Shown: positions 731 through 62,259 of the stretch, piece after piece | Position numbering within the stretch: position 1 is the stretch's first letter | Layout: the number at the start of each line of letters is the position of its first letter | IMG/VR virus record: IMGVR_UViG_3300028888_000086 | Length of the DNA: 64,000 bases | Reading direction: 5' to 3' (one strand) | DNA from: a virus | Taxonomy: Duplodnaviria > Heunggongvirae > Uroviricota > Caudoviricetes | Position numbers and translations under genes: made by a program | Notes under the pieces: model-generated | Database searches by the model: none | What the model saw: the letters and a program-made list of their open reading frames with translations, nothing else | What the model was told of the DNA's origin: nothing

Positions 731-818
731 AGTATTTTAAATTTTTTAGATTTATTTTCATAATTAAGGTTTTGATATAACTTAATCCCCTTATATTTGA
801 ATTTCAAACTAAATCAGT

Positions 819-9244: not shown

Positions 9245-10736
9245 CTTGATATTCAAGCAGTTACGTTACTTCTGCCTCGTTCTCTTATGAACTGCTATAT
9301 GTCTCCATATAGAATAGACTATATCTTCATTATTAAATTTCTTAATAATGTTCCGCTTTTCCACTTACGATTTTAGTGTACTCCTGTAAAAGGATAGTCG
9401 TTGAGGAACAATAAACTTATTAGTCAGATAAGTTTTTTATTTCTTTAAATAATTCATCTAGATCTTCATATACTTTATAAGGATACTTGAAATCACTGTC
9501 TGACTTAGTTTTTATAATATTTGAGTAATAGAATACTCGTAAACCATGTTCTAAACAAAGATTTCGTTTATTATCATCCATTTTAACTCTTTCTTCAAAA
9601 GTATATTTTTTATCAAAAAATTCAGTTGGTTTAAAATGTTGTAATCCTTGACACTCTATAACTGCATTAAAGTCGGGTAAGTAAAAATCTACGTGCTGTT
9701 TTCTTTTATACTTTAACCAATCCCAGGTATATTGTTTTATTATATTAATATTATTATCTTTACAATATAATTCAATATCAACTTCTAAAATAAATCTATC
9801 TCCACAACTAGGACATCCACAATTACTTAAATGTATAGATGGTTGCTGCCAAAACGGTCCATGAGAATTACATATTATCTTAACTGGTGTAGTACAATTT
9901 ACGTACTCAACTTCATCATATCCATAAGTATCTTTATGTATTAATTTTGCGCGACGTATAAATTCTTCAGTATTAATATTAACTCCACCATTACACTCTG
10001 AACACCCATGTCCATATAAATGATCATGTGGTCTTTGAGTAAATTCTTTTTTACACCTATTACAAATCAATTTAACTGGTGTATTGATATTTACATAATT
10101 TACTTCACTGTAATCATATTTATCTTCGCCATGTACTTTTTTAGCTGCTTCTATAAAACTTTCTGTTGTGTATTTTTTATATGGACTTGGATTACATTCT
10201 TTACATCCACATCCCTGTAAAATATCAACCGGCTTAATTTCAAAATACCCATGTATATCACAATTTAGTATAACAGGCGTACTACTATTAATATAATTAA
10301 CTTTATTATATCCGTATCTATCTCCATGAATCTCTCTAGCCTTTTCTATAAACTGTTCCTGTGTATATTTTACTCCACCTTTACAGTTAGGACATCCTTG
10401 TCCACAGAGATGATTGTGTGCAGTCTGAATAAATTCATTTCTGCACTTATTACAAATTATAATAACTTTATCTTTACTTGATGTATAATTTACTTTGCTA
10501 TAATCATATTTATTTTCACCATGTACTTTTTTAGATCTTTCTATAAATTCTTCTGTTGTATATTTTTTCATTATAATTTTAGTTTATATAATTTATTTAT
10601 ATTGTTCCTGCTGATTTTCTCTATTTTATGAATTTTTAGGGTAGGTGACTAAATCCTACATTAACCTCCTATCATAAACCTAGCGAGAGTTTCCAGCATT
10701 TAACGGAATTTTAAAACACCAATTTTAAAATATTTT
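9245..10736 (-). mobile_element. group I intron B of rpoC (family 1), ~1.49 kb, carrying a homing-endonuclease ORF in a peripheral loop just upstream of P7
   Basis: R UUCCUCAACGACUAUCC (~9393-9409) and S GAAGAUAUAGUCUAUUC (~9311-9330) lie downstream of the ORF stop. The intron ends ...AUCAAG before GAU UUU GAC. The 5' exon ends in U (GCU). Confidence 0.65.
9420..10571 (-). CDS. intron-encoded homing endonuclease-like protein: 4 tandem Zn-ribbon repeats plus C-terminal Vsr/PD-(D/E)xK-like nuclease domain
   Basis: The repeat YT.E.FIE...K.HG..YDYS.VNY....P..I.C..HG.F.Q.P..HL.G.GCP.C occurs 4 times. The C-terminus has HVDFYLPDFNAVIECQGLQHF (DFYLP..N.AIE..G.QH). Confidence 0.75.
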   Translation of the reverse strand: MKKYTTEEFIERSKKVHGENKYDYSKVNYTSSKDKVIIICNKCRNEFIQTAHNHLCGQGCPNCKGGVKYTQEQFIEKAREIHGDRYGYNKVNYINSSTPVILNCDIHGYFEIKPVDILQGCGCKECNPSPYKKYTTESFIEAAKKVHGEDKYDYSEVNYVNINTPVKLICNRCKKEFTQRPHDHLYGHGCSECNGGVNINTEEFIRRAKLIHKDTYGYDEVEYVNCTTPVKIICNSHGPFWQQPSIHLSNCGCPSCGDRFILEVDIELYCKDNNINIIKQYTWDWLKYKRKQHVDFYLPDFNAVIECQGLQHFKPTEFFDKKYTFEERVKMDDNKRNLCLEHGLRVFYYSNIIKTKSDSDFKYPYKVYEDLDELFKEIKNLSD

Positions 10737-10814: not shown

Positions 10815-11120
10815 CATACAAAACATTGAATATTCCGAAAAATACTTATATTTTCATATAAGACTAGACTATATCATCATCTATATTTCAAGATGGACTG
10901 CGCTTCAAAAATAGGAATTTCACCTATTTCTTACTCCATATAGGATAGTCGTTACACCTTTTTTGATTTATAATTTCAAAACTTGGCTCGGGATTGCCAT
11001 ATTATATTTCTATAACTTAGGTTTCCCCGATAGCAGAGATTTTATTTTCTCCACACCTAGCATTTACTAGTTCACAGTCTTTGCATTATAAGATCGCTCT
11101 TATAAGTCACAAATTTCTTT
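10815..11120 (-). mobile_element. group I intron A of rpoC (family 1, no ORF, ~306 nt)
   Basis: R GGUGUAACGACUAUCC (~10943-10958) and S GAUGAUGAUAUAGUCUAG (~10867-10884) are present. The 5' exon ends CAU (U). The intron ends UGUAUG. Confidence 0.7.
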
Positions 11121-12281
11121 ATGAAGTGTAGGAGGCCTATTAATAATTACTAGTTGTTTTTCTGCAAATTCCTTAAATAATTTTTGAGTTTCAGGATTAA
11201 ATGCTTCTTCTCTAGTAGCTTTCATAGCCTCTTTGTATGTAAAGTTAAGCTCTTTCTGTAGATGTTCAATAAATTTTTCTCTAAGTAATTCATAAGCAAT
11301 AGATACAGGAATACCAATTTCATCAATCTTCAAATCTGTTGCTGGAACAATTGGACATCTTGCAGAGTTTTTTGTTCTTACTCCAAATAATTCACGGGCT
11401 AAATTTTCTTTGGAGGTATTTAATAATTCAGTAGCTTCTTTTTTACCTGTATTCAAAAAAGCTCTAAGTAATGCAGTATATCTAACTTTTTCGCCAGGAG
11501 TTTTAAAGCGGCCAATTACTTCTTCATAATTCAGGTCATTACTTTTTTTATCCTGTACACAACAAAGTCTAATAATAATACTGTACCAAACTGACAATTT
11601 ACTAGACCCTTGAGTTTTCTTACCATTTTTATATTCAAAGGTAACGGGTCTCATCATTGCAGGTAATACTAAATAATATCGATTTATAAGTTTTCTGAAT
11701 TCGTTTGCTCTTTCTGGGAAGTGTTTTTCTATAATAGCTAACAGACCTTCATAAGAACATTTAGATTCATCTGTTATAAATTCAGATATTTTTAGTTCTT
11801 TCTTTGTGGGACTATAAGTAAATTGGCAAGTATCAAAAACCTTTATAGTTAATTTCTTTCCACCACGACCAGCATATCCTAAGTTTTTGAAATCATTACC
11901 TTGGAAATCTAGTTTGATAGTACTTTCAGAAAATATATCATCAAATAATTCTTTAAATATATCAAATCTCAAGTCATTTAAGTAATAAAAAGGTAATTCT
12001 ATTCTTGCAAATCTTCTCATACCTTCCTCTCTTGTAAAAACTCTAGCTCCACAAAAAGGGCAAGGTTCATGAGAGGCTCTTTTAATTTTACCACAAATAC
12101 AACGATCTTCATAGATTGACCCGAAAGCATCAACATCATAAACTCCTCCAGGTATGGGTTCAGGATAGTTGAATTTCAGGTTAAAGTCTCTATGATCAAA
12201 TAAAACTCTATCTCGACCATCACTTCTTGTATAGTCTAATATAGCTTCATCTGTTAATAATTCTAGTGATACTTTTGACAT
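11121..12281 (-). CDS. rpoC: RNA polymerase beta' subunit exon 1 (through ...INRPPTLH)
   Basis: N-terminal Zn finger CICGKIKRASHEPCPFCG, RFARIELPFYY (RMGHIEL), INRPPTLHK (LNRAPTLHR). The annotated tail EICDL* is intron read-through. Confidence 0.9.
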
Positions 12282-13566: not shown

Positions 13567-13654
13567 GGAGAGGTGCCGAAGTTGGTCATAACGGCCTAGA
13601 CTTGAAATCTTGTGTGTCTTTATAGACCCGTGGGTTCGAATCCCACCCTCTCCG
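13567..13654 (+). tRNA. tRNA-Ser(UGA), class II with long variable arm
   Basis: Acceptor GGAGAGG/CCTCTCC, D-arm GCCG...CGGC, anticodon loop CTTGAAA, T-arm GTGGGTTCGAATCCCAC. Confidence 0.8.
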
Positions 13655-13678
13655 CTTTCAAAATAAAATAACAAAAAT

Positions 13679-36618: not shown

Positions 36619-38781
36619 ATGAGTACACAATTAATTTTTGTGATCGTGAGTATAGTAGCATTAGTGTTACTATCGACTGTTGTACTGATCTTAACTCGGT
36701 ACAAAAAATGTAAATCAGACGAACTTCTAATCGTCTATGGTAGAACTTCAAAAAAGAAACTAAGATCTGCCAAGGATGGTGAGAAGGTTGAAATCGATTC
36801 TAGCAACTGTAAGTGCATTCAAGGTGGTGCAAAGTTTATTATCCCAGTAATTCAGGGATATTCGATCCTTAAGATGACACCGAAACAAATTGTATGTAAC
36901 TTAACGAATGCTCTTGACCTTCAAAAGATTGAGACATCGGTTAAGACTGTTATTACTGTTGCTATTTCTAAGACTCCAAGCGTTCAAATTAATGCCGCGA
37001 CTAGATTATTAGGATTAGATGACAAAGAAACTAGTTCGCTCATAAGTGAGATCTGTTTCGGTTCTTTGAGACTAGTGGTTTCTGAGATGTTACTTGAAGA
37101 TCTTGTTAATTCGAGAGATAAGTTTTTGGAACTCTGTAAGACAAGAATTGGATCTGAACTTGAAAAGATTGGTTTTGACTTAATCAATATCAATATTTCA
37201 GAAATTTCCGATAATGCTCACTACCTAGAAAATCTTGGTAAGAGTGCTGAGGCACGTGCTACATTTACTGCAAAGAGTGAGATTGAAAAGCGTACTAAGG
37301 AAGGTGAAATCGCGATAGCCACTCAGAAACAAGAGAAGGAAGTAAAACTCTCTGAAATTTCTCGTGATAAGGAAATTCAAGTTTCTGAAAACAAGAAACA
37401 GCAGGATATTAGAACTGCTGAAATTGAACGTGATAGGGTTACCACAACGGAAACAACTAAGAAGGAACAGGAAGTTTCTCTTAGGGATATCGAACGTGAG
37501 AAAAAAGTTCAAATAGCTGAGAAAGCCAAAGAGGAAACAGTTAAGATTCGTGAAGTTGAAAAGAATCAAACTTTGGAAACAGCCTCACTTGAAAGAGAAG
37601 AGGCTGAAAAGAAGTCTGAAATTGAACGTGATAAGCAAATTACTATTGCAACGAATCAGAGTGAACAAGCCCAGAAAGTGGCTGAACAAGAAAAACTTAA
37701 ACAATCTGAAGTTGCAAAACAATCTGCTGAGGCTCAAACTGCTGTTGCTACCGCTAATGCAGAACGTGATGCTAAGATTGCTGAACAAGAATCAAAATCT
37801 GAGGCGGCCCAAGCTAAATCTCGTCAAGATGCAGCAGCTAGTGTAGTAGAGGCTGAACAAAATGCTGAAGCTAGAAAAGAAACTGCTAAACAAGAGGCTA
37901 TAGCTAAGAAGAAAGAGGCTGAACAAAAATCAGAATCTGCTCAGGCTAAGGCTACTCAAGAGAAAGAAGCTCAAATAGCAGAATATGACTCTAGTCGTCG
38001 TAAGAGAACAGCTGAAGCAGATAAAACTGCTACAATTACGGAAAATACTGCTGGTATTGAAATTGCAAAATCAGATGCTCAGTTAGGTAAGGAACAAGCT
38101 GAGTCTCAGAAAATCATTGGTGAGAGTAAAGCTCAGTCTGAACAGGCTATTGGTATCGCCCAAGCCAGGAAGGATGAGGAAATTGCAGTAGCTCAGGCTA
38201 AGGCAGAAAAAGCCAAGCAGGAAGCAACTATCATGGTTGGTACTGAAATTGAGGCCGACAGAAAGAGAACTGAAGCTAAAGGTAAGAAGGATTCTACTAT
38301 TACTGAAGCTGAAGGTGAAGCCGAAGCAATTAAATTGAAAGCTTTTGCAGAAGCTGAAGCAATTAAGGCTAAAAAACTTGCAGAAGCTCAAGGAGAACTT
38401 GCTCTTGCAGAAGTACAAAAAGTACTTGAAGCAGCTAAATCCGAATCTTTGGCGAATCTTGCAAAAGCTAATGTTGCTGCAGAAGCTCAAATTAGTTGGA
38501 TTCTTAGAGATCAGTATGCTGAGATGATTGAAGCTGATTCAAAGAAATTTGAACATCTTACAACAGGTGATATCAAGATTATTGGTGGTACTGATACTGC
38601 TGGTAAGTTTTTGAAAGACACCGTTCAAGCTGTTCAACAATCTTCAATGCTCAGTGAATTTTTACCAGGTCTTGGAGGAGTTTTAGGAAAATTGGATAAA
38701 TTCGATAAAAAGAATCAAGTCCAATCGAGTGAAAATTCAGAGCAATTAGAAGCTCCAGAAGAACCTGAGTCAAAAGAATAA
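36619..38781 (+). CDS. floT: flotillin-like SPFH-domain protein with long E/A/K/Q-rich coiled coil (FloT/YuaG-like)
   Basis: N-terminal TM helix, SPFH-like region, AEAEAIKAK...AEAQ flotillin-type EA repeats, and conserved C-terminal IIGG.D. GC is ~40% against ~25% in the surroundings. Confidence 0.75.
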   Translation: MSTQLIFVIVSIVALVLLSTVVLILTRYKKCKSDELLIVYGRTSKKKLRSAKDGEKVEIDSSNCKCIQGGAKFIIPVIQGYSILKMTPKQIVCNLTNALDLQKIETSVKTVITVAISKTPSVQINAATRLLGLDDKETSSLISEICFGSLRLVVSEMLLEDLVNSRDKFLELCKTRIGSELEKIGFDLININISEISDNAHYLENLGKSAEARATFTAKSEIEKRTKEGEIAIATQKQEKEVKLSEISRDKEIQVSENKKQQDIRTAEIERDRVTTTETTKKEQEVSLRDIEREKKVQIAEKAKEETVKIREVEKNQTLETASLEREEAEKKSEIERDKQITIATNQSEQAQKVAEQEKLKQSEVAKQSAEAQTAVATANAERDAKIAEQESKSEAAQAKSRQDAAASVVEAEQNAEARKETAKQEAIAKKKEAEQKSESAQAKATQEKEAQIAEYDSSRRKRTAEADKTATITENTAGIEIAKSDAQLGKEQAESQKIIGESKAQSEQAIGIAQARKDEEIAVAQAKAEKAKQEATIMVGTEIEADRKRTEAKGKKDSTITEAEGEAEAIKLKAFAEAEAIKAKKLAEAQGELALAEVQKVLEAAKSESLANLAKANVAAEAQISWILRDQYAEMIEADSKKFEHLTTGDIKIIGGTDTAGKFLKDTVQAVQQSSMLSEFLPGLGGVLGKLDKFDKKNQVQSSENSEQLEAPEEPESKE

Positions 38782-43162: not shown

Positions 43163-45650
43163 ATGAATAGAAGAATAGTAATTATTGATCCAGAAGAAAC
43201 CCAAGATAGTGTAAAATATTGGGGATTAGGATTAGGAACTGAGATTTATTTAACAGACTCTCTCAGTAAATTAAGCGATCAAGAGTTAAAAAATGGATTA
43301 AGTTTGGGACCTACTGATGCTGCTATGTTAGTCGGTGGAGGTGGATTTAACTTCTTCTTTGAAAAAACTGGTCTTCATGCTGGGATTAGAAGTGAGAACT
43401 GGTTTGATTGTACTAAGTTAGATCGTCTTAGTGTTGAAGGTGGATCTTATGTTAAAGTTCAAGCAGATTTACCAACACTAGAAGAGATTAAGTATTTTAT
43501 GAGTCCTGAATTTACTCAAGATGTAGATTTCTCATGGTTTAAGTCTAAGGTTATTCATGATTTCCAAGGCGCTATGAGATTCTTAGATTGGTTAGATAGT
43601 TTGCCAATGGATGAAGATTTTGCGGCGGATATCGAGGCAAGTGGTTTCCCGATGGATAAATGGTATGAGTGGTCTGGTGTATCAATCTGTAATAAAAACT
43701 TTGGAGGATTTATTAGCTTTACAGATATTAGATTTACTGCAACTAAAGAACAATATGAAGAGTTATTAAAGAAGTTAGGATTCTTTCTTACTAAACGAAT
43801 GAGTCATATTTGGACTTTTAATATGGGTTATGAGTTCCTGGCGTTTCATAGGATGTTAGGAGTAGATCTTTATAATTTATGTGATGCTGGAGTTTATAAT
43901 ATACTTGACGGATACCATAAAGATAAAAAATATAGTTTAAAGTGGACTGCACAGAGAGTAGTAAAAGCAAAAGTCTGGGATACTGAATTTGATTGGATTT
44001 CTGATATAGTTGATTCAATGCTTTATACAGTTGAAGGAAAGTTGAAAAAGGAAAAACATAAAGTGCTAAAAGTAACTCCAGAAAATTATAAATTAACAAA
44101 TGAATGGAAAGCTTTATGTAATAGATATCCTGAATATGTAAATGAATTTGAATCACTTATGTCTATCTATTTTGGAAATCCTTACATGATAATTCCTAGT
44201 GAGATTTTAGGTAAGTATTGTAATTTAGATGCTTTCTATACTTTGATGATACATTTGACTGAAAAACATTTATATACAGATAAAGCTAGAGAAGTATTTT
44301 TAGATAATATGAGATTAGCAACTAGACTTCACTCGTGTGGAATGCCTAAAGATGAAGAATATAGAGCAGCTTATGAACAATACTGTAAAGAGCAATCTGC
44401 ATTTGGAATTACTTATACAGCTATGGCCCGTTGTTTCTATAAGATGGAAAAACATAAAAAACTCATGGCAAATATAGATAAGTATTCAGACGTTGCTAAA
44501 AAAATGCTATATTCAAATAGATTCTTTAATGGTGATCCTATTGCTATTACTAAAGATATCCTAATTAATAATGTAGATGAACTTGATGCTTATGAATTAG
44601 GTTTAAATGAGGGAAAGTTATTAATGGATTATGGACCTGAATTTGCCGAAAAATTTATAGAGTATACAAGAGAAGCTATGGAAGAGTGTGAGATGATTAA
44701 GCTATATAAGAAAACAGGCCAAAAAGTATTAAAAAAGAAAATAGATAATACTGTTGGTGGGAAGAAAAAACTTATACAGGTACTTAGTCAAAAAATCATA
44801 CCTTTAATTGGACTTGATAAAATAAAAATTAATAATAAACATATAGAGCTTGAAAAATATTTATATTATAAAAGAGCTTATGATGAATTAACAAACGTAG
44901 TTAATACTCAATTAGGGGATATCTATCATATTCCTAAAGAAGTATATGCATTTGGTAGAAGAATGGAATTACTTGAATATAATAATTTAATAGTTTCTGA
45001 ATATTTTAAATGTTCTTCACCTATAGAAAACGACGAAATAGCAAAAGAATTAACAGAACTATTTAAACCACAGACTATATTTCTTGCTACCATATTTACG
45101 ATGACTCAGCAACTTCCAAATGCTGAAAAATACTATAGTGAATTAGGTATTAACACAATTGAAGAAGCTTATGAACATTTTATGAGTAATTGGAAAGCTT
45201 ATGCAAATGATGGTATACCTGTAGGACAAACACAATATCCAGAACAAATTTATACAGAGGCAGGTACATTCTATAAAAACATATCTTTAGATCCAGTTAA
45301 AGATGTTTGGACTTCCTTCGATGGATATCATGCAGAGTCCCAATTTTTCAAGTATGTAGATGATCAGTATTTAGAATATGAAAAACCATTTAGTCCAAGT
45401 GATTTAGATAATATTTGGTTCTTTCATAGAAAAATGACAATTAATTATTTAAGATATAAGAAATATGAAAAGATAAGAAGTACGTATTTATGTGGAATGT
45501 TTGAAGCAACTGATAAATGGGTTCTCGAAGATCCTAATAGTCATGTTGTTATTAGAGAATGTGATGAAAATGAACCAGGAGCAATAAAAAAGATGTTTGC
45601 TCATTTCGCTTGTATGGAGAAACAAACAAAGCGCTGGTCATCGGGTGAAA
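43163..45650 (+). CDS. polA: family A DNA polymerase exon 1 (3'-5' exonuclease plus N-terminal polymerase region; exon end approximate, the ORF tail to 45679 reads into the intron)
   Basis: DIEASG (Exo I DxE) and QTKRWSSGE (TGRLSSSDP region). Confidence 0.75.
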
Positions 45651-45894
45651 TGTTAGCCCCTCTATATAGTGATATATAGAGAAAATCCTGAATATGCTGG
45701 AAACTCCTAAAGCTTTATCTACCAAAGTGTGAAAATGATAAAGATATTACAATGGACAATCAGCAGGGATAACTCTGTAAAAAGAGAAGCCCTCAACGAC
45801 TACCAAGGGACATCTAAAATAAAATTAGATGAAGGTATAGTCTAAACCCAAAATAAAATATCTCGAAAGGGAGGGTATCAATTGTATCACACAA
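45651..45894 (+). mobile_element. group I intron 1 of polA (family 1, no ORF; boundaries +/-30 nt)
   Basis: R CCUCAACGACUACC (~45790-45803) and S GAUGAAGGUAUAGUCUAAACCC (~45829-45850) on the plus strand. These are reverse complements of the rpoB/rpoC intron elements. Confidence 0.6.
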
Positions 45895-46529
45895 TAATCT
45901 CAAAATCAGATATAAAAAGTACCATTTGTTCTTATCCAGGACATTTATTAAGTTATTTTGATATAAGTTCAGCGGAGGTAAAGAGTGCTGGATTTATGTC
46001 GAAAGACGAAAACTTAATAAATATGTTTAAAAATAATATTGATGTATATATAGCAACAGCAAAATCGTATCTTCAAGATAGATGGGATACATTAACTAAA
46101 AAAGAGCAAAAAGCATTTAGAAAAACATTTAAAACTGTTACACTTGCACTTATTTACGGGCAGGGCGTTAATGCCCTAGCTAGTAGATTAAACATTACTA
46201 AGCAGGATGCTCAAGCTATTGTAGATCAAGTTTATACTTCTTATCCAAAACTTAGAGAATATATTAAAGAACAACAAGAATATCCATTACATCACAACGG
46301 AAGAGTGCGAACTTTCTTTGGAGATGTTTTGGTTGCAGAAGAATGGAAATATTATTTAAAAGCTACAGATCCATATGAAAAAAAAGCATTAGCCGCTCGA
46401 ATTGGCAGGGCTGGGAGCAACTATCCCATACAAGGTGGCACGAGCCTGGCGATGAGCAGTGGTTTCTTTAACGACCTACGAGTAGCAAAACAAGAAGGTT
46501 GGGATTTAACAAGTTTTATAACGGTCCAT
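45895..46529 (+). CDS. polA: family A DNA polymerase exon 2 (motif A through motif C His)
   Basis: SYFDISSAEVK (DYSQIELR), TLALIYGQGVNALASRL...YTSYPKLREYI (motif B/O-helix region), NYPIQGGTSLAMS, ending ...TVH| at the H of the catalytic VHDE. Confidence 0.8.
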
Positions 46530-46815
46530 AAGTAAAATTGTGGCATACTGAAGTAATTTAGTATGAAAAAGATTGTGAACTCATATATGTGAGGTGTCTA
46601 AGAAAATAAAAAATCTTAGGCTAACGGTAAAAGCTAAGTTAGAAATAATATGCTAATACCGTGCCAAGTCAGAAATGAAAGGTGTAGAGACTATCCTTTA
46701 TGGAGTAGGTTTATAGTGAAATTCTATATTCCGAAGTGCAATCCATCTTGCAATATAGATGATGATATAGTCCAGCTCTAATGGAAACATTAGGAGAAAG
46801 CGGATTCTAATACTT
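46530..46815 (+). mobile_element. group I intron 2 of polA (family 1), inserted inside motif C between His and Asp
   Basis: The 5' exon ends CAU. R GGUGUAGAGACUAUCC (~46678-46693) and S GAUGAUGAUAUAGUCCAGC (~46759-46777) are nearly identical to rpoC intron A. The 3' end is approximate. Confidence 0.6.
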
Positions 46816-47186
46816 GTGATTTTCCAGCAGATAAATTATGGGATATCAGAAAATTTTACGATCATAACTTTACAGATTTTTGCTATGAAATGACAGGAAT
46901 TCAGTTATTGTTTGATATCTTAATTGGAGCGTCATATCAAGATGCATGTGAAGCTAAATCAATAGATGATAATACTGTAGAATTAACGGGTAACGCACGA
47001 TCCCATTTAATGATTATACAAAAACTAAATGAATGTCCTGGTCTAAAATATACTATAGACATGAATATAGATGATATAGTACCAGATTTTGAAACTAATT
47101 GTACAAAAAGATTTATAAAAGAAGCAGGATGTTCGTTTGTTATGGATAATTCAAAATATTCAATCAAGTATACAAGATTGAGTTAA
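46816..47186 (+). CDS. polA: family A DNA polymerase exon 3 (C-terminal tail; contains annotated ORF 46890-47186)
   Basis: The open frame extends upstream of the Met to ~46795 and would begin DDFPAD... after VH, giving VHDD. IIQKLNECPGLKYTIDMNI resembles the Pol I C-terminal IHQLMENCTRLDVPLLVEV. Confidence 0.5.
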
Positions 47187-47227: not shown

Positions 47228-48850
47228 TTATTTGGTTTTATATGTATTAATCTCTTTTATCAGACCCTCTTTATTAGTTATTATTGGCGAAAAATAATTT
47301 GATATGCTATTATTTATAAGTACTTTCTCTTCTTTTCCAGCACCAGATAAATTGGGATCATAATAATAAAGAATTTTTATATTGTGTTGATTACATAAAT
47401 TATACTTTGTTAAATCTCTTTTATACCCTTCATTAAATGCTAGTAAACCTCCAAAATAATCTACTGGAATAAAATGTTGATCTCCATGAGCTTCTATAGC
47501 TATGTTAAAGTCTTCTAAATAAAAATCTAGTTTTAAATTTTTATTATATTTTAGCCACGTAAATGTTTTCTGAAAGTGATATTTTATTTTTAGTTCGTCT
47601 AATATCTCTCTAACTGAGTTTTCTAGCATTGAAATTATTTCATCTACATATACTAATTGTTCAGGAAGTGTTAATGATTTTCGATAAAGAGAATAGTATC
47701 TCTTTTGAAATTCCGATGGATTTTTTATATTATTTGTATTTATAAACTCTTGAAATTCTTGTACAGTATTTATATTATCAATTAATCCATTTGGTAAAAA
47801 TTTTTGTATTCTATTTGGATAGATAACTTTTGAAGTTAGTTTAAGATGTGTTAGCCTACTATAGATATCATTAAATCTTTTTCTAAAATCAGAAGGAGAT
47901 TGTATATTTTCTTTATTTATCAATTCTTGGAAGTCTGTTTCAGAATTGTACTTTTTTAATTCTGAATTAGATTTTGGTCTTAAAGGAAACTCTAATTTTG
48001 AATCCCACTTATTTCTTAGTATTTTAGCATACATAGACATATTAGACCTTCTTATTTCATCTAAATATACTATTTTATTTACTATTATATAATTTTGTAT
48101 ATAATCAAAAGTATATAAATCTAATTCCGAGTTTTGTAATTTTAATTCTGTATATCCAACATCTTCAGATTTTATGCCAAGCTTCCTCATACGTTTATCA
48201 ACTTTAGGGAACCTATTTAACATATCAGCTACATTCTTAATATTATTCTCTTCTATGAATTTCTTGAAGTCTTCAATTGTATTTAATTTCGAAGTATCTA
48301 ACCATCCAGGAAATGTTAATAGTCTATTTCCCTTCTTAAGATATCCAAAGTCCAGTGCCCATTTATACTCAGTTTTATAATTTTCTCGAAAGTCCTTTGG
48401 GCTAGATATATTATTATCGTTAATAAACTTCTGAAATTCTTCTATAGATCTTAATTTATTTTCCCTTTCGTATTTTAATGGATTTTTATATTTTATCTCT
48501 TTAGCTAGATGTTTTCCAACTAATTTTTTATATGTTGAGGGAAATCTGGAATTAAAGTCTGAATAATTCTCTATATTGTTCTCGTCAACAAATTTTTGAA
48601 AGTCTTCTAAATTATTCAGATTTTTATTCGTTTTAAAATCTCTAGTCTTTTCAGTATACACTACATCATCATTGAACTTCAGATATTTAAGTCTACTATG
48701 AACCTTAAGATATCTTTTCTTTAAATCAGAGTTACTTTTTATATTGTTATTCGCAATAAATCTCTGAAAATGATCTAATTCTGTGAAATCTTTTGCATTT
48801 ATTTCATCATTAGATACTCCAATTTTGTCAAAACTTTTTATATTATTCAT
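47228..48850 (-). CDS. homing-endonuclease-like protein: 6 N-terminal ~40-aa repeats plus C-terminal Vsr/PD-(D/E)xK-like nuclease (paralog of the rpoC intron ORF nuclease domain)
   Basis: Repeat (L/I)E(D/E)FQKFI.ENNI....DF..R(F/Y) occurs 6 times. The C-terminus has LKLDFYLEDFNIAIEAHGDQHF. Confidence 0.7.
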   Translation of the reverse strand: MNNIKSFDKIGVSNDEINAKDFTELDHFQRFIANNNIKSNSDLKKRYLKVHSRLKYLKFNDDVVYTEKTRDFKTNKNLNNLEDFQKFVDENNIENYSDFNSRFPSTYKKLVGKHLAKEIKYKNPLKYERENKLRSIEEFQKFINDNNISSPKDFRENYKTEYKWALDFGYLKKGNRLLTFPGWLDTSKLNTIEDFKKFIEENNIKNVADMLNRFPKVDKRMRKLGIKSEDVGYTELKLQNSELDLYTFDYIQNYIIVNKIVYLDEIRRSNMSMYAKILRNKWDSKLEFPLRPKSNSELKKYNSETDFQELINKENIQSPSDFRKRFNDIYSRLTHLKLTSKVIYPNRIQKFLPNGLIDNINTVQEFQEFINTNNIKNPSEFQKRYYSLYRKSLTLPEQLVYVDEIISMLENSVREILDELKIKYHFQKTFTWLKYNKNLKLDFYLEDFNIAIEAHGDQHFIPVDYFGGLLAFNEGYKRDLTKYNLCNQHNIKILYYYDPNLSGAGKEEKVLINNSISNYFSPIITNKEGLIKEINTYKTK

Positions 48851-49178
48851 GAGTTTTAATGTTTTTAATTTTAATCCCAGAACAATAACTGGATCAAGTA
48901 AGTTAATTTATTGTAATTGTGATTCCATAATGTTTATAGTGAAGGGCTTTCTCAGTTAGCTAATCTAATACTCACCCTTCAAACATCATGAATAATTTGA
49001 AACTTGAGAGAACGAACAAAAGGAGTACGCAAAAATACACACTCTTCTCATTGTCTCCTCTCACTTATAAGATTCAAACCCCGTCATAAGCGCATTTTTA
49101 TCATTTCAGGCATTATAAAACTTAGAATACGCTTATAGACTTTTTATTTCAAGCGATATTTAGTTTTTAATATTTGAA

Positions 49179-50885
49179 ATGAAGTTTTTGCGCTTTATAA
49201 GTTTGTTTAGCTTTATATATGAGAGAAAAAACTTAATATATATGATAGATAAAGAAACTTTTACTAATGAGATAGAAAAATTAGAAACAACGAAAGAAAA
49301 GGGAGATTATTTTTTAGAAGTATTATCTAAAGAGTTTTTTCCAGAAGAGGAGATTACTTTCTTAGATGGCTCAGGTGATGGAGGAATTGATGCTTATTTT
49401 ACTTGTATCGATGAAAATATAAGTAAATGGTCTATAATACAATCTAAACATGGAAGTTCTTATAAAGGTACTGATTCCATTTGTTGTGATTTTTCTAAAA
49501 TATTTATACACCTAGAAGATAAAGAGTATTATGGAAAAGATAATGTATTTTTATATTTAAGAGATTTTATAAAAGAATCTAGTGAAAAAATAATTATACT
49601 CTATCTTTTAACAGATAATAAAATAAGTGACTCTGAATTAAATTCATTCAAAACAATAAAAAATATATTTTCTGAACGATATAATATTAAATTTGAAGTT
49701 GAAAATTTATATCCTGATCTATTATATGAAAAAACATCTACAGAAAAGATATATAATATTGAATTACCTGGAAATTTTATAAAAGATGATGGATCTGGGG
49801 AACTAGTAGGAAAAGTAAAAATTAGTGATTTATTTAATTTCATGAAGAATTTTAAATCACTAGCTGGCGATATTAAATTATTATATAAATCAAATATTCG
49901 TCTTTACTTATCAAATAAACTAGCAAAAGCCATAGCTAGTACACTTAGTAATGATCCTGATAAATTTTTTGAATATAATAATGGAATAACAATTCTTACT
50001 AATGGAATAAATTATAATGAAAAAGGAGTATTAATTTTATGTAATCCTGATTGTAACAATGGATGTCAAACATCATTGACTATCTATAAATATATTGAAA
50101 ATTCTAAAATAGTTCCTAATTCTAATTTATGTGTTACTATAATTGATATTTCTAAAAAATCAAAAGAAGAAATAGTAAAAATAACAGAATGTAGAAATAA
50201 ACAAACAGCTGTAAAATCTGTTGGAAGTATATTTGTTCTGGATAAAAGAGTTGAGGAAATAAAAAACATACTTAAAAATGATTATGGAAAAATATTACAG
50301 ACTAAAAAAGGAGAATATAGTCCTAAAAAGATCGATTTTGTAGATTTAATGAGTATGTGTTTTTGTATAATTGATGGTACTCCTGGTATAGCTAAATTAA
50401 AAAATGCCGAACACTATAATTCTAAAACAGGTGATGATTTTATAACAAAATTAAAAGATGATAGAGAATTATTATTATTGAGTTATAGATTAGCGGAGAT
50501 TTGTGAATTACTTAATAAAAGATCATATAAATATCGAGTAGAGAGTTTAAGATATGCTCAAATATCAATTCTTTACACAATACTAGAAAAAGCTGTTGGA
50601 TCTGATAAAGGAAAAATGTTAAAAATACTCAATGACAATGATTTATATGATTATTTTATGAAATCAGCTACTGGATTAATCAGAATATATACAGATATTA
50701 AATCAAGGACAAAGGCAAAGTTTTTGTTTGATTATGAGAATGTAGATAATTTAGAAAGATTGAGTAAGTTATTAGATTTAAATACATCTCCAAAATTAAA
50801 TGAATTAATATCTAGTTGGTTTGAATTTACTTATAAAGAAAAAACTGATATTATAGATAAAGTTGAAAAAATATTAAAAAGTTAA
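49179..50885 (+). CDS. AIPR-like abortive-infection / PD-(D/E)xK nuclease-family protein (true start probably the Met of MIDKETF at ~49242, downstream of the promoter motif at 49208-49224)
   Basis: The N-terminus has GSGDGGIDAYFTCIDEN...IIQSKH (D..E.K nuclease-like signature) followed by a long alpha-helical body, matching AIPR architecture. Confidence 0.5.
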   Translation: MKFLRFISLFSFIYERKNLIYMIDKETFTNEIEKLETTKEKGDYFLEVLSKEFFPEEEITFLDGSGDGGIDAYFTCIDENISKWSIIQSKHGSSYKGTDSICCDFSKIFIHLEDKEYYGKDNVFLYLRDFIKESSEKIIILYLLTDNKISDSELNSFKTIKNIFSERYNIKFEVENLYPDLLYEKTSTEKIYNIELPGNFIKDDGSGELVGKVKISDLFNFMKNFKSLAGDIKLLYKSNIRLYLSNKLAKAIASTLSNDPDKFFEYNNGITILTNGINYNEKGVLILCNPDCNNGCQTSLTIYKYIENSKIVPNSNLCVTIIDISKKSKEEIVKITECRNKQTAVKSVGSIFVLDKRVEEIKNILKNDYGKILQTKKGEYSPKKIDFVDLMSMCFCIIDGTPGIAKLKNAEHYNSKTGDDFITKLKDDRELLLLSYRLAEICELLNKRSYKYRVESLRYAQISILYTILEKAVGSDKGKMLKILNDNDLYDYFMKSATGLIRIYTDIKSRTKAKFLFDYENVDNLERLSKLLDLNTSPKLNELISSWFEFTYKEKTDIIDKVEKILKS

Positions 50886-50944
50886 GAGAGCTGAAATATG
50901 TTCTCTTTTTCTTTTTCTTTTTATTTTTCCTTCTAATATTCCTT

Positions 50945-50962
50945 GAAAGCCTTATATATGTA
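50945..50962 (+). promoter_or_regulatory. promoter motif AAAGCCTTATATATGTA plus TSS hairpin AAACAGG...CTTGTTT plus downstream module TTTATTTTCAAAATATTAACAAT
   Basis: The same composite occurs at 52002-52078, 22745-22833(-), 41130-41252(-), 39180-39252(-). Confidence 0.55.
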
Positions 50963-52418: not shown

Positions 52419-55400
52419 ATGAGAAAAAATAATGGAAAAGAAATTATGCCAGAAGAAATGTTAAGAAACTATATGATTTCTAAAGGCGTGGATAAAGCAA
52501 TAGATATAACTATAGAGTGGAATAAAGTAAAAAAGAATTATAACGGAGAGTATTTTATTCCTGATAGTAATTATGTAAAAAAGATTTTTGGTAAAACAAT
52601 ATTTGAATTCCTAAACATGAGTAAAAAAGGTAAAATGAAAAATGCAATGCCTGAGGATATGTTAAGGAATTTAATGATTGAAAACGGTGTTGATAAAGCA
52701 ATAAATATAAAAAATGCATGGAATAAAGTAAAAAAGAATTATAACGGAGAGTATTTTATTCCTGAATCGACATACGTAATAAAAACTTATGGTAAAACAA
52801 TACATCAAATTTTATGTATACCTACATTATCATCTCTTATGCCAGAGGATATGTTAAGGGATTTGATGATTGAAAACGGTGTTGATAAAATAAGAAACAA
52901 TCGAAAAATTTGGGATAAAATAGTGGATAAATATGATGGAGAATATTTTATTCCAAAATCAACAAATGTAAAAAGGGCTTATGGTAAAACAATACATCAA
53001 ATTTTAAATATGTCTTTGATCATGCCTGAGGATATGTTAAGGAATTTAATGATTGAAAACGGTGTTGATAAAGCACAAGATAAATGGAGAGAGTGGAATA
53101 AAGTAAAAAAGAATTACAACGGAGAGTATTTTATCTGTAGCTCTGGAGGTGTAAAAAGAATTTATGGAAAGACTGTATATGAGTTTTTTAATGAATTAGG
53201 ATATTATTTAAAAGAACGAGTTATTAATTTTCTTTCACTCCACATTGAAGACCTAGCTATGATGGATAAACCAGAGCTTCTTCAGTTAGGAATGTTAGGA
53301 GATTTGCCGAAAGAAGAACATAAAAAACTCATTGACTATCCTAAAGGGGAAGAGAAAGTAGGATTTATTAAAGAAATGGTTGAACGTCTAAAAAATCCTA
53401 AAGAAAATCAAGAGGAGGTAGAGACGTTTAATGAATTTCTAAATGAAGATGTTGATAAACCTGAAGAAACAGAGTCTTCTAATAAAGAAGAAACTGAATT
53501 TGAAAAAGGGCTTCATAAAGGATTAGAAATTGTTGAGAATTCTAAATCATATAACTTAGAAAAGCAAATCTCAGATCTTTTTGGTGGATTGAATGCTTTA
53601 GGTAATTTCAAACATAGTGATTTTACTAGTGAGGAAGCAATAGATTATATTGTAAGTTTCGAAATTCAGAAACTTTGGAATATAGTCATCTGCAATCCCA
53701 CCGAAGCTATGAGATTAATTGAAGAACAAATGCTTCAAAGAGGGAGTAGTGAGTTTTTCAGGAAAGTTATTAATGAGTTTATAAGACAGCATAATGAAGT
53801 AATTAATTTTATAATTCCGGATGGTTATTCATTTCCGTTCCAACCAACTTTAATGCAAAAATTGACTGCATTTATGGTTCTAGAAAAAGAACAGACAGCT
53901 AATTGGAGTGAAACTGGTTCGGGAAAAACTTTATCTGGAGTTCTATCATCAAGAGCTATAGATTCAAGAATAACTTTTGTAATAGCCGTAAACTCAACTA
54001 TAAATAACTGGACAGATGATGCTATTAAAAAAGCTTATCCAGACAGTAAAGTTTATAGAAAGAGTAATATAACAGATACTACAATTTTAGATAGAAATTT
54101 TCATAATTACGTAGTAGTTAATTATGAGGAGTTCCAAAATTCTAATAAATTCTTGAATAAATGGAAACCGTTCTTGATAAATAATAAAGTAGATTTTGTT
54201 ATCTTAGATGAAATTCAAAAAGTAAAAGCGAATAGTCGAGATAGCATGACTAACCGAAGAATAGTCATAGAAAATCTACTACAAGAGATAGACAAGAAAT
54301 GTGGTCGTGATTTAGAAAAAGAAGGTCGTAAAGTACCTATTCTTGCTCTATCTGCTACTCCTGTGATCAATAGTGTTAATGAGGGATTATCTATTATATC
54401 TCTCTTAAGGGGGATAGATTATACTAGTAAAAGAAATACTAGAAAGTCTGCATTAGCTTGTCATTTTGATATAGTTAAAATGGGCTTAAGACTAGTTGAA
54501 GAATCTCCTGCTATTGAGAAGTTAATTACATTCCCAATAAAAAGGGATATAAAAGATATTTCTGGAATTAATATAAAAGGAAATAAAAACTTCTTAGTCG
54601 CTATTGATGTTTGTGGTTGCTTGATTAAAATTGGAGAGTGCATCAGAAGAGGATATTTACAGCCAGGAATTCCTACTGTAATTTATACTGAATTAGTTAC
54701 TGATGTTATTGATCCTATTATTGGATTTCTTCAAGCAAACAATTTCAGAGTTGGTGAATTTACTGGTAGAAATGAAAGTACAAGAGAGATAATAAAAGAA
54801 GGTTTTATTGCAGGTAAATATGATGTATTAATTGCATCTAAACCAATTACAACTGGTGTAAATGGATTACAGAAAGTATGCAATAGGATTATTCCGATAG
54901 TTCTCCCGTGGACTTATGCAGAATATCATCAACTTATTGGAAGATTAAATCGTAAAGGAACTATATTTGATGAAGTACAGGTTATAATACCTACCATCGA
55001 GTATACTAATTCCGACAATGAAGTTTGGTCGCTTGATAATAATAGATTAGCTAGAATACATTATAAACAAATATTAGCTGATGTTATTATGACTGGAAAT
55101 ATTCCTGATGATATAATAACTACAGAACAAGCTTATAAATTAGCTAAAGATAAATTTCTTACCTTTATAAATAATGAAGGAGGTAGTGAAAAATCTAGGG
55201 AAATTCCAGTACAAGCAGCTGAACTTAAACCTGCACCACCTAAAGCAAGACCTGAGGGACAAGGAAATCAGAGAGATTACTTTTCTGAATTTCAAGGTAT
55301 TAATCAAAGAATATCAACCTCAACTTGTGATGGTGTATTTAGTAAGATCTTCAAAAATAAAGAAGATTGGGAAAATTACCACAACTTAAGAGAAAAGGCA

Positions 55401-55847
55401 ATTGGACAAAACCAGCCGCTAAAAATTATATCTCAAGATTTCTTAAAGTCTAAAAAACATAAGATTATTGGAGATATGGGATGTGGTATGAATCAGTTTA
55501 AAACATTATTACCAGAAAACTATGAAGTTATTTCTGTGGATATGTATGCGGCTGATGATACAGTGAAAGTATGTAATCTTATGGATACCTCAAAAATTAT
55601 TCCAAATGAAAGTTTAGATATCGCAGTATATTGTTTATCATTATGGAGTAGAGATTGGAGAGAAATTTTAAAAGATGCATACAGAATTTTAGATTATGAT
55701 GGAAAGATTATAATAGTTGAACCTGTTAGCTCATCATCGAAAAGTATTGATAAAATGAGACAAACCTTAATTGAAAATGGATTTACAAACATTTCAACAA
55801 CTAAGGATGGAGAAGATAAATTCTATTATATGACAGCCAATAAATAA
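52419..55847 (+). CDS. giant multidomain protein: 4 N-terminal ~55-aa repeats, then SF2 helicase, then C-terminal class I SAM-dependent methyltransferase
   Basis: Repeat MPEDMLRNLMIENGVDKA...WNKVKKNYNGEYFIP...YGKTI occurs 4 times. Helicase motifs GSGKT, ILDEIQ, LSATP, TTGVNGLQ. MTase motifs IIGDMGCGMN (motif I) and IIIVEP (motif IV region). Confidence 0.75.
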   Translation: MRKNNGKEIMPEEMLRNYMISKGVDKAIDITIEWNKVKKNYNGEYFIPDSNYVKKIFGKTIFEFLNMSKKGKMKNAMPEDMLRNLMIENGVDKAINIKNAWNKVKKNYNGEYFIPESTYVIKTYGKTIHQILCIPTLSSLMPEDMLRDLMIENGVDKIRNNRKIWDKIVDKYDGEYFIPKSTNVKRAYGKTIHQILNMSLIMPEDMLRNLMIENGVDKAQDKWREWNKVKKNYNGEYFICSSGGVKRIYGKTVYEFFNELGYYLKERVINFLSLHIEDLAMMDKPELLQLGMLGDLPKEEHKKLIDYPKGEEKVGFIKEMVERLKNPKENQEEVETFNEFLNEDVDKPEETESSNKEETEFEKGLHKGLEIVENSKSYNLEKQISDLFGGLNALGNFKHSDFTSEEAIDYIVSFEIQKLWNIVICNPTEAMRLIEEQMLQRGSSEFFRKVINEFIRQHNEVINFIIPDGYSFPFQPTLMQKLTAFMVLEKEQTANWSETGSGKTLSGVLSSRAIDSRITFVIAVNSTINNWTDDAIKKAYPDSKVYRKSNITDTTILDRNFHNYVVVNYEEFQNSNKFLNKWKPFLINNKVDFVILDEIQKVKANSRDSMTNRRIVIENLLQEIDKKCGRDLEKEGRKVPILALSATPVINSVNEGLSIISLLRGIDYTSKRNTRKSALACHFDIVKMGLRLVEESPAIEKLITFPIKRDIKDISGINIKGNKNFLVAIDVCGCLIKIGECIRRGYLQPGIPTVIYTELVTDVIDPIIGFLQANNFRVGEFTGRNESTREIIKEGFIAGKYDVLIASKPITTGVNGLQKVCNRIIPIVLPWTYAEYHQLIGRLNRKGTIFDEVQVIIPTIEYTNSDNEVWSLDNNRLARIHYKQILADVIMTGNIPDDIITTEQAYKLAKDKFLTFINNEGGSEKSREIPVQAAELKPAPPKARPEGQGNQRDYFSEFQGINQRISTSTCDGVFSKIFKNKEDWENYHNLREKAIGQNQPLKIISQDFLKSKKHKIIGDMGCGMNQFKTLLPENYEVISVDMYAADDTVKVCNLMDTSKIIPNESLDIAVYCLSLWSRDWREILKDAYRILDYDGKIIIVEPVSSSSKSIDKMRQTLIENGFTNISTTKDGEDKFYYMTANK

Positions 55848-55932: not shown

Positions 55933-57220
55933 ATGAAATTAAATATATTATCTGAGAAAACTACAGTAAAAAGAAAACCTGAGTATTGGGTTAGTCTATA
56001 TTATGAAAATGAAACAGTTGGAAAATATATATTTTCTAAACTTACAAATGACCTAGAAAGATTTATAGAAATTCTTCAGGATATTAGTAAAAGGTATGAA
56101 ATAGAAAATGGAAAATTCTGTTGTTATTTTTCAGATGAGTTAAATAGAATGTTTGAAGAAGATCATGAAGCATACGATTTCTTAATGTGTCTAAACAGTC
56201 ATAATTACTGTTATGATTTAGTAAATGAAGATAATGAATTTGAGTATGCATTTATGGGATTTAAAGTAGAATATATAGACGAAAACGGAGATTGGCATAA
56301 CATAAAAATAGAAAATGATGAAAAATAAAAACAGCAAGAATAATACAACTCCAGAAGAAAGGAGAATTTTAGCAGAGTCTTATCTTAGGTGGTTAAAAGA
56401 ATATGGAGATGATTTTGATAAAAGTCAAATAGTTGAAACAGATGAGAGAATATTTTTATTATGTGCTGAAAAAGAGTATGACTATGGAGGCCTTAGTTTA
56501 AAAAATATTGGATATACGCCAGAAGAGATAGAACAAGGATTAATAAAAAGTGGATATTACAAGGAAAATAAATCAGTTAAGCACTTTATAGATTGGTTTA
56601 ATGAAAAATATTAAAAAAATAGAAAATGGCTAAACATAAGAAAATTAGTAAGAAAGATAAAAAAATTAAGAATATTTATAAAGTAGATAATAGATCTAGT
56701 CGAGATACTTTCTTAAAATGGTTAGATGAATGTGGAAATGATTTACTGTATTTTAGTGGAGTCTTAAGTTGTTGTGGTTCTGACGGTCCTAATATAACAT
56801 TAGATAAAGTAGGTAAAGCTCATTTTAACATGCCTGAAGAAGTAGAAGATTACTTACAGGACCAAGGATTATATGAAGAAATGGATGTAATATGTGATAC
56901 GGTTCATTATAATCCTCCGTCTAAACACTATATAGACTGGTTTAAAGAAAAAATTATCCATAAAAATGAGTAAAACATATAAAAAGAAAGTTAAGTCTAA
57001 TTTATTTAAAAACGGAGAACATGGCCACCACAATACTTTATCTAGAGAATTTAAAGGGGTAGATGCTGGTGGTTGGTTAGTTAAATCATTCAGAGGACTT
57101 ATTGATAGACGTGATTATGAGTCTGATAGAAATAAAGGTATTAGACGAATTATGAATAAGAAAAGACGTATATCAATGAAAAGAAATGTACAAAAAGAAT
57201 TAAAGAATGAATTAGAATAA
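55933..57220 (+). CDS. four small hypothetical proteins (55933-56328, 56315-56614, 56626-56973, 56966-57220); the 2nd and 3rd are paralogs
   Basis: YLRWLKEYGDDF...HFIDWFNEKY matches FLKWLDECGNDL...HYIDWFKEKI. Confidence 0.5.
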
Positions 57221-59087: not shown

Positions 59088-59341
59088 ATTTTATTTATTT
59101 TTCTATAAATAAGGCTTTGAAATTAGATTTTTACGTTTTATAAGTTCGATTAGCTTTATATATGTGAAAACCTAGTTTATTTTTTAATTAATCTATATAG
59201 TGGTTATAATATTATTCAAATAAATGCATTAAGAAGTAGTGATGATAAAAATGCAAAATGTAGACAAATAAAAGAAAATCTAATTATGAATTATTAAAAC
59301 CTTAAAACTCTTATATATGTAAAAATTAAAATTATAAAATT

Positions 59342-61770: not shown

Positions 61771-61774
61771 TGTG

Positions 61775-61848
61775 TCGGAACGAAAGGATTTGAACCTTCG
61801 ACATCTTGGTCCCAAACCAAGCATTCTACCGAGCTGAATTACGTTCCG
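61775..61848 (-). tRNA. tRNA-Pro(UGG)
   Basis: Acceptor CGGAACG/CGTTCCG, anticodon arm CTTGG TTTGGGA CCAAG, T-arm GAAGGTTCAAATCCTTT. Confidence 0.8.
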
Positions 61849-61876
61849 AAGTTTTTTGTTATTTGTTTTGAAAATG

Positions 61877-61962
61877 CGGAGGCTACTGGGCTCGAACCAG
61901 TGCGTCCTTTCAGACCTACCAGTTTAGCAAACTGGCCCCTTCACCAACTTGGGTAAGCCTCC
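61877..61962 (-). tRNA. tRNA-Ser(GCU), class II
   Basis: Acceptor GGAGGCT/AGCCTCC, anticodon arm CCAGT TTGCTAA ACTGG, long variable arm, T-arm CTGGTTCGAGCCCAG. Confidence 0.8.
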
Positions 61963-61979
61963 ATTTGTTATTTATCTTG

Positions 61980-62052
61980 AGTAGTAGACGGGTCTCGAAC
62001 CCGCGACCTCGAACTTGGAAGGATCGCGCTCTACCAACTGAGCTACTACTAC
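61980..62052 (-). tRNA. tRNA-Gly(UCC)
   Basis: Acceptor GTAGTAG/CTACTAC, D-arm GCTCAGTTGGTAGAGC, anticodon loop CTTCCAA, T-arm GCGGGTTCGAGACCCGT. Confidence 0.75.
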
Positions 62053-62078
62053 TTGTTATATTTATGATGTGAAACTTT

Positions 62079-62162
62079 TTACAAATAGTAGAAGTGGGTG
62101 GATTCGAACCACCGAACCTATAAAGGAGCGGATTTACAGTCCGCCGCAATTGACCAACTATG
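62079..62162 (-). tRNA. tRNA-Tyr(GUA), bacterial-type with long variable arm
   Basis: Acceptor AGAGGTG/CACTTCT (one G.U), anticodon arm GCGGA CTGTAAA TCCGC, T-arm GGTGGTTCGAATCCACC. Confidence 0.75.
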
Positions 62163-62259
62163 CGACACCTCTACAATCACCAACTATAAGGATTTCAAGG
62201 CTTTCAAACTGCAATAAATAAAATATAAAATAAAGGGATAGAATAAATCCCTTTATCAA

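Follow-up and report, generated by a model that had tools for sequence, protein, structure and literature searches.

The locus analyzed here raises the question of what a gene from an abortive-infection family does in the genome of a phage. Few abortive-infection families were named earlier than AIPR/AbiU1, which is often encoded in restriction-modification (R-M) operons and is mechanistically unstudied. The gene lies in a window of 64,000 nucleotides (the whole stretch of DNA that was analyzed), which has a G+C content of ~27% and contains five tRNA genes. This stretch had been described as a viral genome, rightly so: PHROG matches to RNA polymerase beta, helicase, and homing endonuclease mark a large phage. 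Further, a relative of the AIPR gene is found on a contig of 293.7 kb (L003). The phage is probably a jumbo phage from metagenomes of the animal-gut or rumen type. A nucleotide search with the region and a tblastn search with the AIPR protein against 50,697 GenBank phage genomes produced no match, and that collection contains no close relative of the phage.

At 3026-4885 (-) and 11100-12281 (-) the window encodes parts of the beta subunit of a multisubunit RNA polymerase of the phage type (PHROG 3295 and 2987). With an identity of no more than about 26%, their closest matches come from Staphylococcus, Listeria, and Bacillus jumbo phages. Four tRNA genes, Pro-TGG, Ser-GCT, Gly-TCC, and Tyr-GTA, are clustered at 61774-62172 (-), and a separate tRNA-Ser-TGA is located at 13567-13655 (+). 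Among other products of the window are a 720-aa protein with an SPFH/Band 7 domain (36619-38781 (+), E 2.6e-14) and a 131-aa protein (55933-56328 (+)) with a weak, sub-threshold match to the immunity protein CdiI_4 (E 8e-4).

Gene, start codon, and transcription unit

The ATG-to-stop ORF of the locus, 49179-50885 (+), has 568 codons for amino acids and was scanned against several family collections. The Pfam AIPR model (PF10592) matches with E=2.2e-23 and 83.9-84.2 bits, against a curated cut-off of 25, over profile positions 2-286 of 308; the match is to a central segment, residues 237-490 in the numbering of the long ORF (aa 216-469 of the 547-aa form defined below). The PADLOC model AbiU (PDLC02357) matches with E=1.1e-22, residues 48-481 being aligned with profile positions 33-488 of 537, and PHROG 1841, "Abi alpha-like abortive infection mechanism", matches with E=9e-24. 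The PHROG category of the phage copies is "moron / host takeover". All 87 database homologues have PF10592. Since the three profile matches and the homologues agree, a chance ORF is excluded and the gene is real; its product is, on this evidence, an intact member of the AIPR/AbiU1 family, the assignment already made in the preliminary description. The features of the transcription unit, and the copies of the promoter motif elsewhere in the window, are as follows.

49242-50885 (+): corrected AIPR/AbiU1-family coding sequence, 547 aa and the stop codon (PF10592 E=1.7e-23 on the 547-aa form)
49179-49241 (+): spurious 5' extension of 21 codons, non-coding, overlapping the promoter and containing its motif, with the frame closed in L003 and a separate tiny ORF in L004
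49174-49221 (+): phage-type promoter block, with TTTGAAAT at 49174-49181, TTTGCGCTTTAT at 49187-49198, and TTAGCTTTATATATG at 49207-49221
50884-50917 (+): intrinsic-terminator-like hairpin followed by a T-run, starting one base past the stop codon
14137, 19735(-), 22831(-), 39248(-), 41248(-), 50946, 51418, 51641, 52003: main-class copies of the promoter motif

Four observations agree with the earlier proposal that the real start is the methionine of MIDKETF at ~49242. The 547-aa product is identical to a database protein (P0001), whose gene call starts at this residue, Met22 of the long ORF. With lengths of 541-555 aa, the orthologues can be aligned over the full length of the 547-aa form, and their N-termini (MNKEEF, MNSKEDF, or MINSKEEF) line up with MIDKETF. 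The frame of the upstream ATG meets a stop ahead of the AIPR ATG in L003, and in a second relative, L004, it is a separate ORF of 31 codons. Finally, the distance from the motif to the ATG is 20 nt, similar to the spacing at another gene of the window (motif end 51655, ATG 51680). The peptides quoted earlier from the N-terminal region are present as written, GSGDGGIDAYF at nt 49368-49400 and IIQSKH at nt 49434-49451.

The motif WWAGCYTTATATATG occurs in 11 exact copies in the window, and one of them, at 49207-49221, is the copy that had been reported inside the annotated ORF; the nine copies checked against the ORF list are all intergenic. Nine copies have a longer common upstream consensus, TTTTTCCGTCTATAA..CCTT.AAAGCCTTATATATG. 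A variant class consists of the copies at 49207 and 59150, which have ~40 more upstream bases in common, TTTGAAAT...TTT[G/A]CG[C/T]TTTATAAGTT, and a sister copy of the AIPR promoter block lies at about 59117-59164. The recurring motif ends in TTATATATG, with an AAAGCC class preceded by TTTTTCCGTCTATAA and a TTAGC class preceded by TTTGAAAT..TTTGCG; these may be two temporal classes, read by the RNA polymerase of the phage itself. From its recurrence and position we infer that the motif is a promoter, and if so, its place within the 5' end of the long ORF excludes the ATG at 49179 as a start. The promoter block of ~50 nt is kept upstream of the AIPR gene in all four orthologous loci for which DNA was fetched. 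A scan for sigma-70 promoters produced 19 matches, against 18.9 expected.

Downstream, the hairpin at 50884-50917 folds with -12.6 kcal/mol (z = -3.0), and the terminator scan found two terminators in the region against 0.3 expected. Since this hairpin directly follows the stop codon and the next promoter motif lies beyond it at 50946, the AIPR gene looks monocistronic, with a predicted unit of 49174-50917. Another terminator-like hairpin with a T-run is present on the minus strand at 49023-49044, within the 390 nt that separate AIPR from the divergent endonuclease gene, where no gene lies upstream on that strand for termination.

Domain plan of the AIPR protein

An AlphaFold model was built from an alignment of 43 sequences, with a mean pLDDT of 86. 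The models show three modules, a head with a restriction-endonuclease fold, a ParB/sulfiredoxin-like core, and a helical tail.

49242-49736 (+): PD-(D/E)xK (FokI/Mrr-like) endonuclease-fold head, aa 1-165
49749-50240 (+): AIPR-domain core with a ParB/sulfiredoxin-like fold, aa ~170 to ~333
50244-50882 (+): C-terminal helical region, aa 335-547, model pLDDT 75-96

The head contains the motifs D42-G-x-G-D46-G-G-I-D50 (nt 49365-49391) and Q67-S-K69 (nt 49440-49448). The alignment has no substitution at D46 or D50, and Q67, S68, and K69 are conserved in at least 90% of the sequences. D50 is placed in the model just ahead of the strand 51-56, and QSK closes the strand 61-69, a predicted layout that corresponds to a classical PD...(D/E)xK site in which Q takes the place of the acidic residue. 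An alpha-beta-beta-beta-alpha-beta core, an acidic residue at the start of a strand, and (D/E/Q)xK on the next one, the features expected of a PD-(D/E)xK domain, are all present. Thus both an AIPR match and a nuclease fold, the absence of which had been named as refuting the preliminary description, were detected. At the level of sequence the head has no Pfam match at E up to 10, and a phmmer search with it against 1.84 billion representative proteins gave only 36 matches. Because all of those examined are AIPR proteins or their fragments, the head can be regarded as a private N-terminal accessory module of one AIPR subfamily, rather than a family-defining one. In this respect the preliminary description, which had recognized AIPR by its N-terminal head, needs amendment: the nuclease-fold head stands, but the Pfam AIPR model matches the core, not the head.

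The motifs of the core, invariant or nearly so, are N218-x-R220, N246-N-G-I-T250 (nt 49977-49991), N273-G-C-Q-T277 (nt 50058-50072), and N319-x-Q321. Residues N218, R220, N247, G248, T250, N273, G274, Q276, and N319 are invariant in the 43 sequences and present here. Over the whole protein, 13 of 13 family-invariant residues and nearly all near-invariant ones are retained, including the putative catalytic D...QxK. When aa 170-405 were modeled separately (pLDDT 84.5, pTM 0.68), the matches to restriction enzymes were all gone, and the top ten structural matches were exclusively proteins of the ParB/sulfiredoxin fold: PadC (6.0), BrxU (5.8), two sulfiredoxins, the Pnob8 ParB-N domain, SspE, KorB, Atu1540, SbnI, and a free serine kinase. 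Therefore the endonuclease fold is assigned to the head, and the ParB/sulfiredoxin-like fold to the core. AIPR has been described as a ParB-superfamily core fused to another nuclease domain (PMC3632139), and both parts of this description are found in the model of the phage protein. NGCQT occupies the position of the DGQQR/DGQHR motif of DUF262 and DndB, which binds phosphate in these proteins (PMC4619093), and it is without the Asp and Arg of that motif.

The Pfam AIPR match extends into the first part of the helical region, as far as aa 469 (nt 50648), and no separate family or fold match was found for the region. Accordingly the "long helical body" of the preliminary description can be kept for the tail, but the Pfam-defined AIPR core is predicted to be an alpha/beta domain of the ParB/sulfiredoxin type. 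Pfam searches of the isolated head and of all 43 members found no nuclease, DUF262, DUF1524, ParBc, or DndB model, and a profile search of all PDB sequences gave one spurious match of 22 residues, with no solved AIPR structure detectable by sequence.

Genomic neighborhood and descent

The gene arrangements in the window and in three related loci are given below.

Window: polA exon 3, a homing-endonuclease gene (-), AIPR
L005: polA exon 3, an HNH_3-NUMOD1 endonuclease gene (-), AIPR, a nucleoside deoxyribosyltransferase gene
L003: ThyX, then AIPR
L004: AIPR, then convergent genes, with PTH2 and ClpP nearby

An all-against-all comparison of the ORFs within 4 kb on either side in the four loci detected no conserved partner, antitoxin, or immunity gene; besides AIPR, these intervals share only the 3' exon of polA, which is common to two of the loci, the window and L005. 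The PADLOC models produced nothing significant for the neighbors. Given the promoter block in four of four loci, no shared partner, and no PADLOC match among the neighbors, AIPR appears to be a single-gene unit. Linkage to R-M systems or defense islands, which is typical of the family, though not strictly defining, was not found for the phage copies. In bacteria, AIPR genes are embedded in R-M operons (PMC3506569). The nearest bacterial relatives are located in defense islands: one homologue lies within a type I hsdM-hsdS-AIPR-hsdR operon, adjoined by genes for a HigB-like toxin and an HTH-peptidase, and another adjoins a reverse transcriptase and HicAB.

Two neighbors were considered as possible partners and rejected. 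The upstream divergent gene does not travel with AIPR, the 540-aa endonuclease of the window and the HNH_3-NUMOD1 protein of L005 being unrelated. A gene for a helicase-methyltransferase of 1142 aa, located 1.5 kb downstream of AIPR, has separate promoters and is missing from the other loci, and was not retained as an R-M partner. The latter gene (52419-55847 (+)) encodes four N-terminal repeats of ~60 aa (MPE[ED]MLRN.MI.[KN]GVDKA...NYNGEYFIP), with a ResIII/DEAD helicase after them and Methyltransf_8 at the C-terminus; the protein has weak matches to DrmD-like helicases in PADLOC and no relative in IMG/VR.

The free-standing gene at 47228-48850 (-), between polA exon 3 and AIPR, encodes the homing-endonuclease-like protein of 540 aa, with about seven N-terminal repeats FQKFI..NNI.S.SDF..RY and a C-terminal domain that matches PHROG 9084, "homing endonuclease" (E 2.6e-15). 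Its paralog at 9420-10571 (-), matching the same PHROGs, lies between other large ORFs in the RNA polymerase beta region. In L005 the slot between polA exon 3 and AIPR holds the gene of the HNH_3 and NUMOD1 homing endonuclease at 532-2019 (-). Endonuclease genes appear to have an insertion hotspot downstream of polA.

The polA gene itself, encoding a family A DNA polymerase, occupies 43163-47186 (+) and consists of three exons split by two small predicted group I introns that contain no ORF.

About 45647-45869 (+): first polA intron (Rfam RF00028)
About 46530-46802 (+): second polA intron (Rfam RF00028)

A sensitive Rfam scan placed RF00028 at 46572-46794 (52.7 bits, gathering score 50, E=4.5e-12) and at 45637-45865 (48 bits, E=1.2e-10); both introns were missed by a default-filter Rfam scan of the whole window. 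Exon 1 extends from 43163 to about 45646 and ends at the TGRLSS-like QTKRWSSG, the junction of intron 1 being uncertain by a few bases. Exon 2 contains motifs A and B (Pfam DNA_pol_A positions 139-307) and ends in ITVH. When U46529 is joined to G46803, polA motif C is restored as VH/DS, which places the second intron within this motif. L005 supports 46803 as the 3' splice site, since its orthologous polA ORF starts at exactly the same DSNT.

Orthologues of the AIPR protein were found in four or five related phages, at 59-80% identity, and form with it a clade of five to six sequences (59-100%). The next-nearest relatives are bacterial AIPR proteins with about 28% identity and a length of about 617 aa, ~70 aa more than the 547 aa of the phage protein. 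The ORFs are full-length and intact in all five or six relatives. Pairwise dN/dS values for four orthologues, over the whole length, are 0.19-0.38, with dS near saturation, and are indicative of purifying selection. Between the window and the 293.7-kb contig L003, the AIPR proteins are 61% identical, and two backbone proteins are 64% and 49% identical. As the divergence of AIPR is similar to that of the backbone genes, the gene is judged to be as old as the clade. Distant AIPR relatives, at no more than 37% identity over the matched segments, were identified on 22 viral contigs of IMG/VR. Virus-borne AIPR is not new in itself, in agreement with the existence of PHROG 1841.

Possible functions and relation to known systems

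We suggest, with moderate confidence, that the AIPR protein is a stand-alone DNA nuclease acting against non-self DNA, most plausibly the genomes of co-infecting phages. In the mechanism proposed, a single polypeptide would combine an N-terminal head that is a metal-dependent DNA endonuclease with a ParB-like core and a helical tail that, on binding DNA or a nucleotide cue, allow the head to cleave. The control by the core and tail is modeled on the DUF262/ParB-like sensor modules of GmrSD, BrxU, and SspE; ParB domains of the DUF262 type are sensors and NTPases that activate a fused nuclease (PMC12065111). With NGCQT in place of DGQQR/DGQHR, the analogy to an NTP sensor is weakened and may not hold. 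The phage would make AIPR during infection and destroy non-self DNA, leading to superinfection exclusion, its own genome being spared by some property; nothing in the window indicates how the phage DNA would escape. That the gene is functional is supported by the dN/dS values, the backbone-like divergence, and the retention of all invariant residues, and the bacterial homologues, in an R-M operon or beside a reverse transcriptase and HicAB, give the family a defense pedigree. The literature search returned neither a demonstrated biochemical activity for any AIPR protein nor work linking AIPR with ParB.

The main rival, which we consider doubtful, is a host-takeover nuclease that degrades or nicks the host chromosome for shut-off or nucleotide salvage. 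Its predicted enzymology would be the same as that of a nuclease against non-self DNA, and genes of DNA metabolism lie next to AIPR in several loci, namely polA in the window and L005, ThyX in L003, and nucleoside deoxyribosyltransferase in L005. Besides, a phage with pieces of its own multisubunit RNA polymerase would plausibly tolerate the loss of host DNA. However, this position is not conserved, L004 having PTH2 and ClpP instead, and the characterized contexts of the AIPR family are all related to defense. The changing neighborhoods, at least three different ones in four relatives with the promoter always alongside, could also point to a selfish cassette, that is, a homing-type nuclease element moving with its own promoter between sites in related phages. 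AIPR adjoins free-standing homing endonuclease genes in two loci, and the region has two group I introns. Such mobility is nevertheless improbable: divergence similar to that of the backbone genes agrees with vertical inheritance accompanied by rearrangement of the genomes, the window and L005 have polA exon 3, homing endonuclease, and AIPR in a common order, the two adjoining homing endonucleases show no relationship to one another or to AIPR, and the family is without known homing activity.

As an anti-defense decoy, the phage copy would mimic and poison, in a dominant-negative manner, the host AIPR subunit of an R-M-linked system, and the occurrence of bacterial AIPR genes in R-M operons (PMC3506569) means that interaction partners may exist in the hosts. 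We regard this as quite improbable, since every one of the 13 invariant residues is kept, the putative catalytic D...QxK among them, purifying selection (dN/dS 0.19-0.38) extends over the whole length, and about 28% identity to any bacterial AIPR is poor for mimicry. That the gene is left over from a bacterial defense gene gained by horizontal transfer, and is now decaying or inert with no current role, would be in line with the ~70 additional residues of the nearest bacterial relatives (about 617 versus 547 aa). It is highly improbable and largely refuted by the intact ORFs in the relatives, the purifying selection, and the conserved promoter and motifs.

The preferred reading, a nuclease against non-self DNA, has an extended form that we rate as unlikely, in which AIPR is an offensive weapon of a virulent jumbo phage and clears all ordinary DNA, that of the host as well as that of rival phages. 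The phage genome would then differ chemically or physically from other DNA, either by a modified base or by replicating in a shielded compartment, as is known for other giant phages that have RNA polymerases of their own, and the ParB-like core would tell ordinary DNA from phage DNA. If true, this would define a substrate logic for the AIPR family for the first time. In any case the phage clade could be a clean entry point to the family, being compact, partner-free, conserved for as long as the clade has existed, and unambiguous in its domain plan, and its protein could suit expression, structure determination, and substrate tests. For phage biology, the locus adds one more virus keeping a "defense" gene for its own use, a useful and unsurprising case of a well-established theme.

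Among known systems, the closest is AIPR/AbiU1 itself (Lactococcus lactis; AbiU in PADLOC). The phage protein resembles it in HMM matches far above threshold, in having all of N-x-R, NNGIT, NGCQT, and N-x-Q, and in the predicted combination of a ParB-superfamily core with another nuclease domain (PMC3632139). Unlike the bacterial genes, the phage copy resides in a jumbo phage under a phage promoter, outside any bacterial defense island or R-M operon, and it is ~70 aa shorter than the nearest bacterial group, ~28% identical to it, and a member of a clade of its own. GmrSD, BrxU, and SspE differ in three respects: their domain order is reversed, the nuclease of phage AIPR being N-terminal; their nuclease is of the DUF1524 HNH type, whereas that of AIPR is of the predicted PD-(D/E)xK type; and they have DGQQR where AIPR has NGCQT. 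Membership in the GmrSD/DUF262 type IV restriction systems was rejected, as neither DUF262 nor DUF1524 is found in the 43 members and the resemblance is at the fold level only. FokI/Mrr-type cleavage domains, which also form the effector heads of Avs4, LlaBIII, MspJI, and AspBHI, are comparable to the AIPR head, which is without a sequence-level match to any Pfam nuclease model. MzaE of the MZA system has the AIPR core in common with the phage protein (local matches to NCBIfam NF041935 and PADLOC MzaE), but identity with MzaE was rejected: the score is 25.2 bits against an equivalog cut-off of 1050, ~80 residues are matched, and there are no MzaA-D-like neighbors. Overall, every sequence and fold feature looked for in an AIPR/AbiU1 protein was found, with the typical R-M linkage missing, and the new element here is a compact, phage-borne subclade; the family was known before, and the kind of system is not new.
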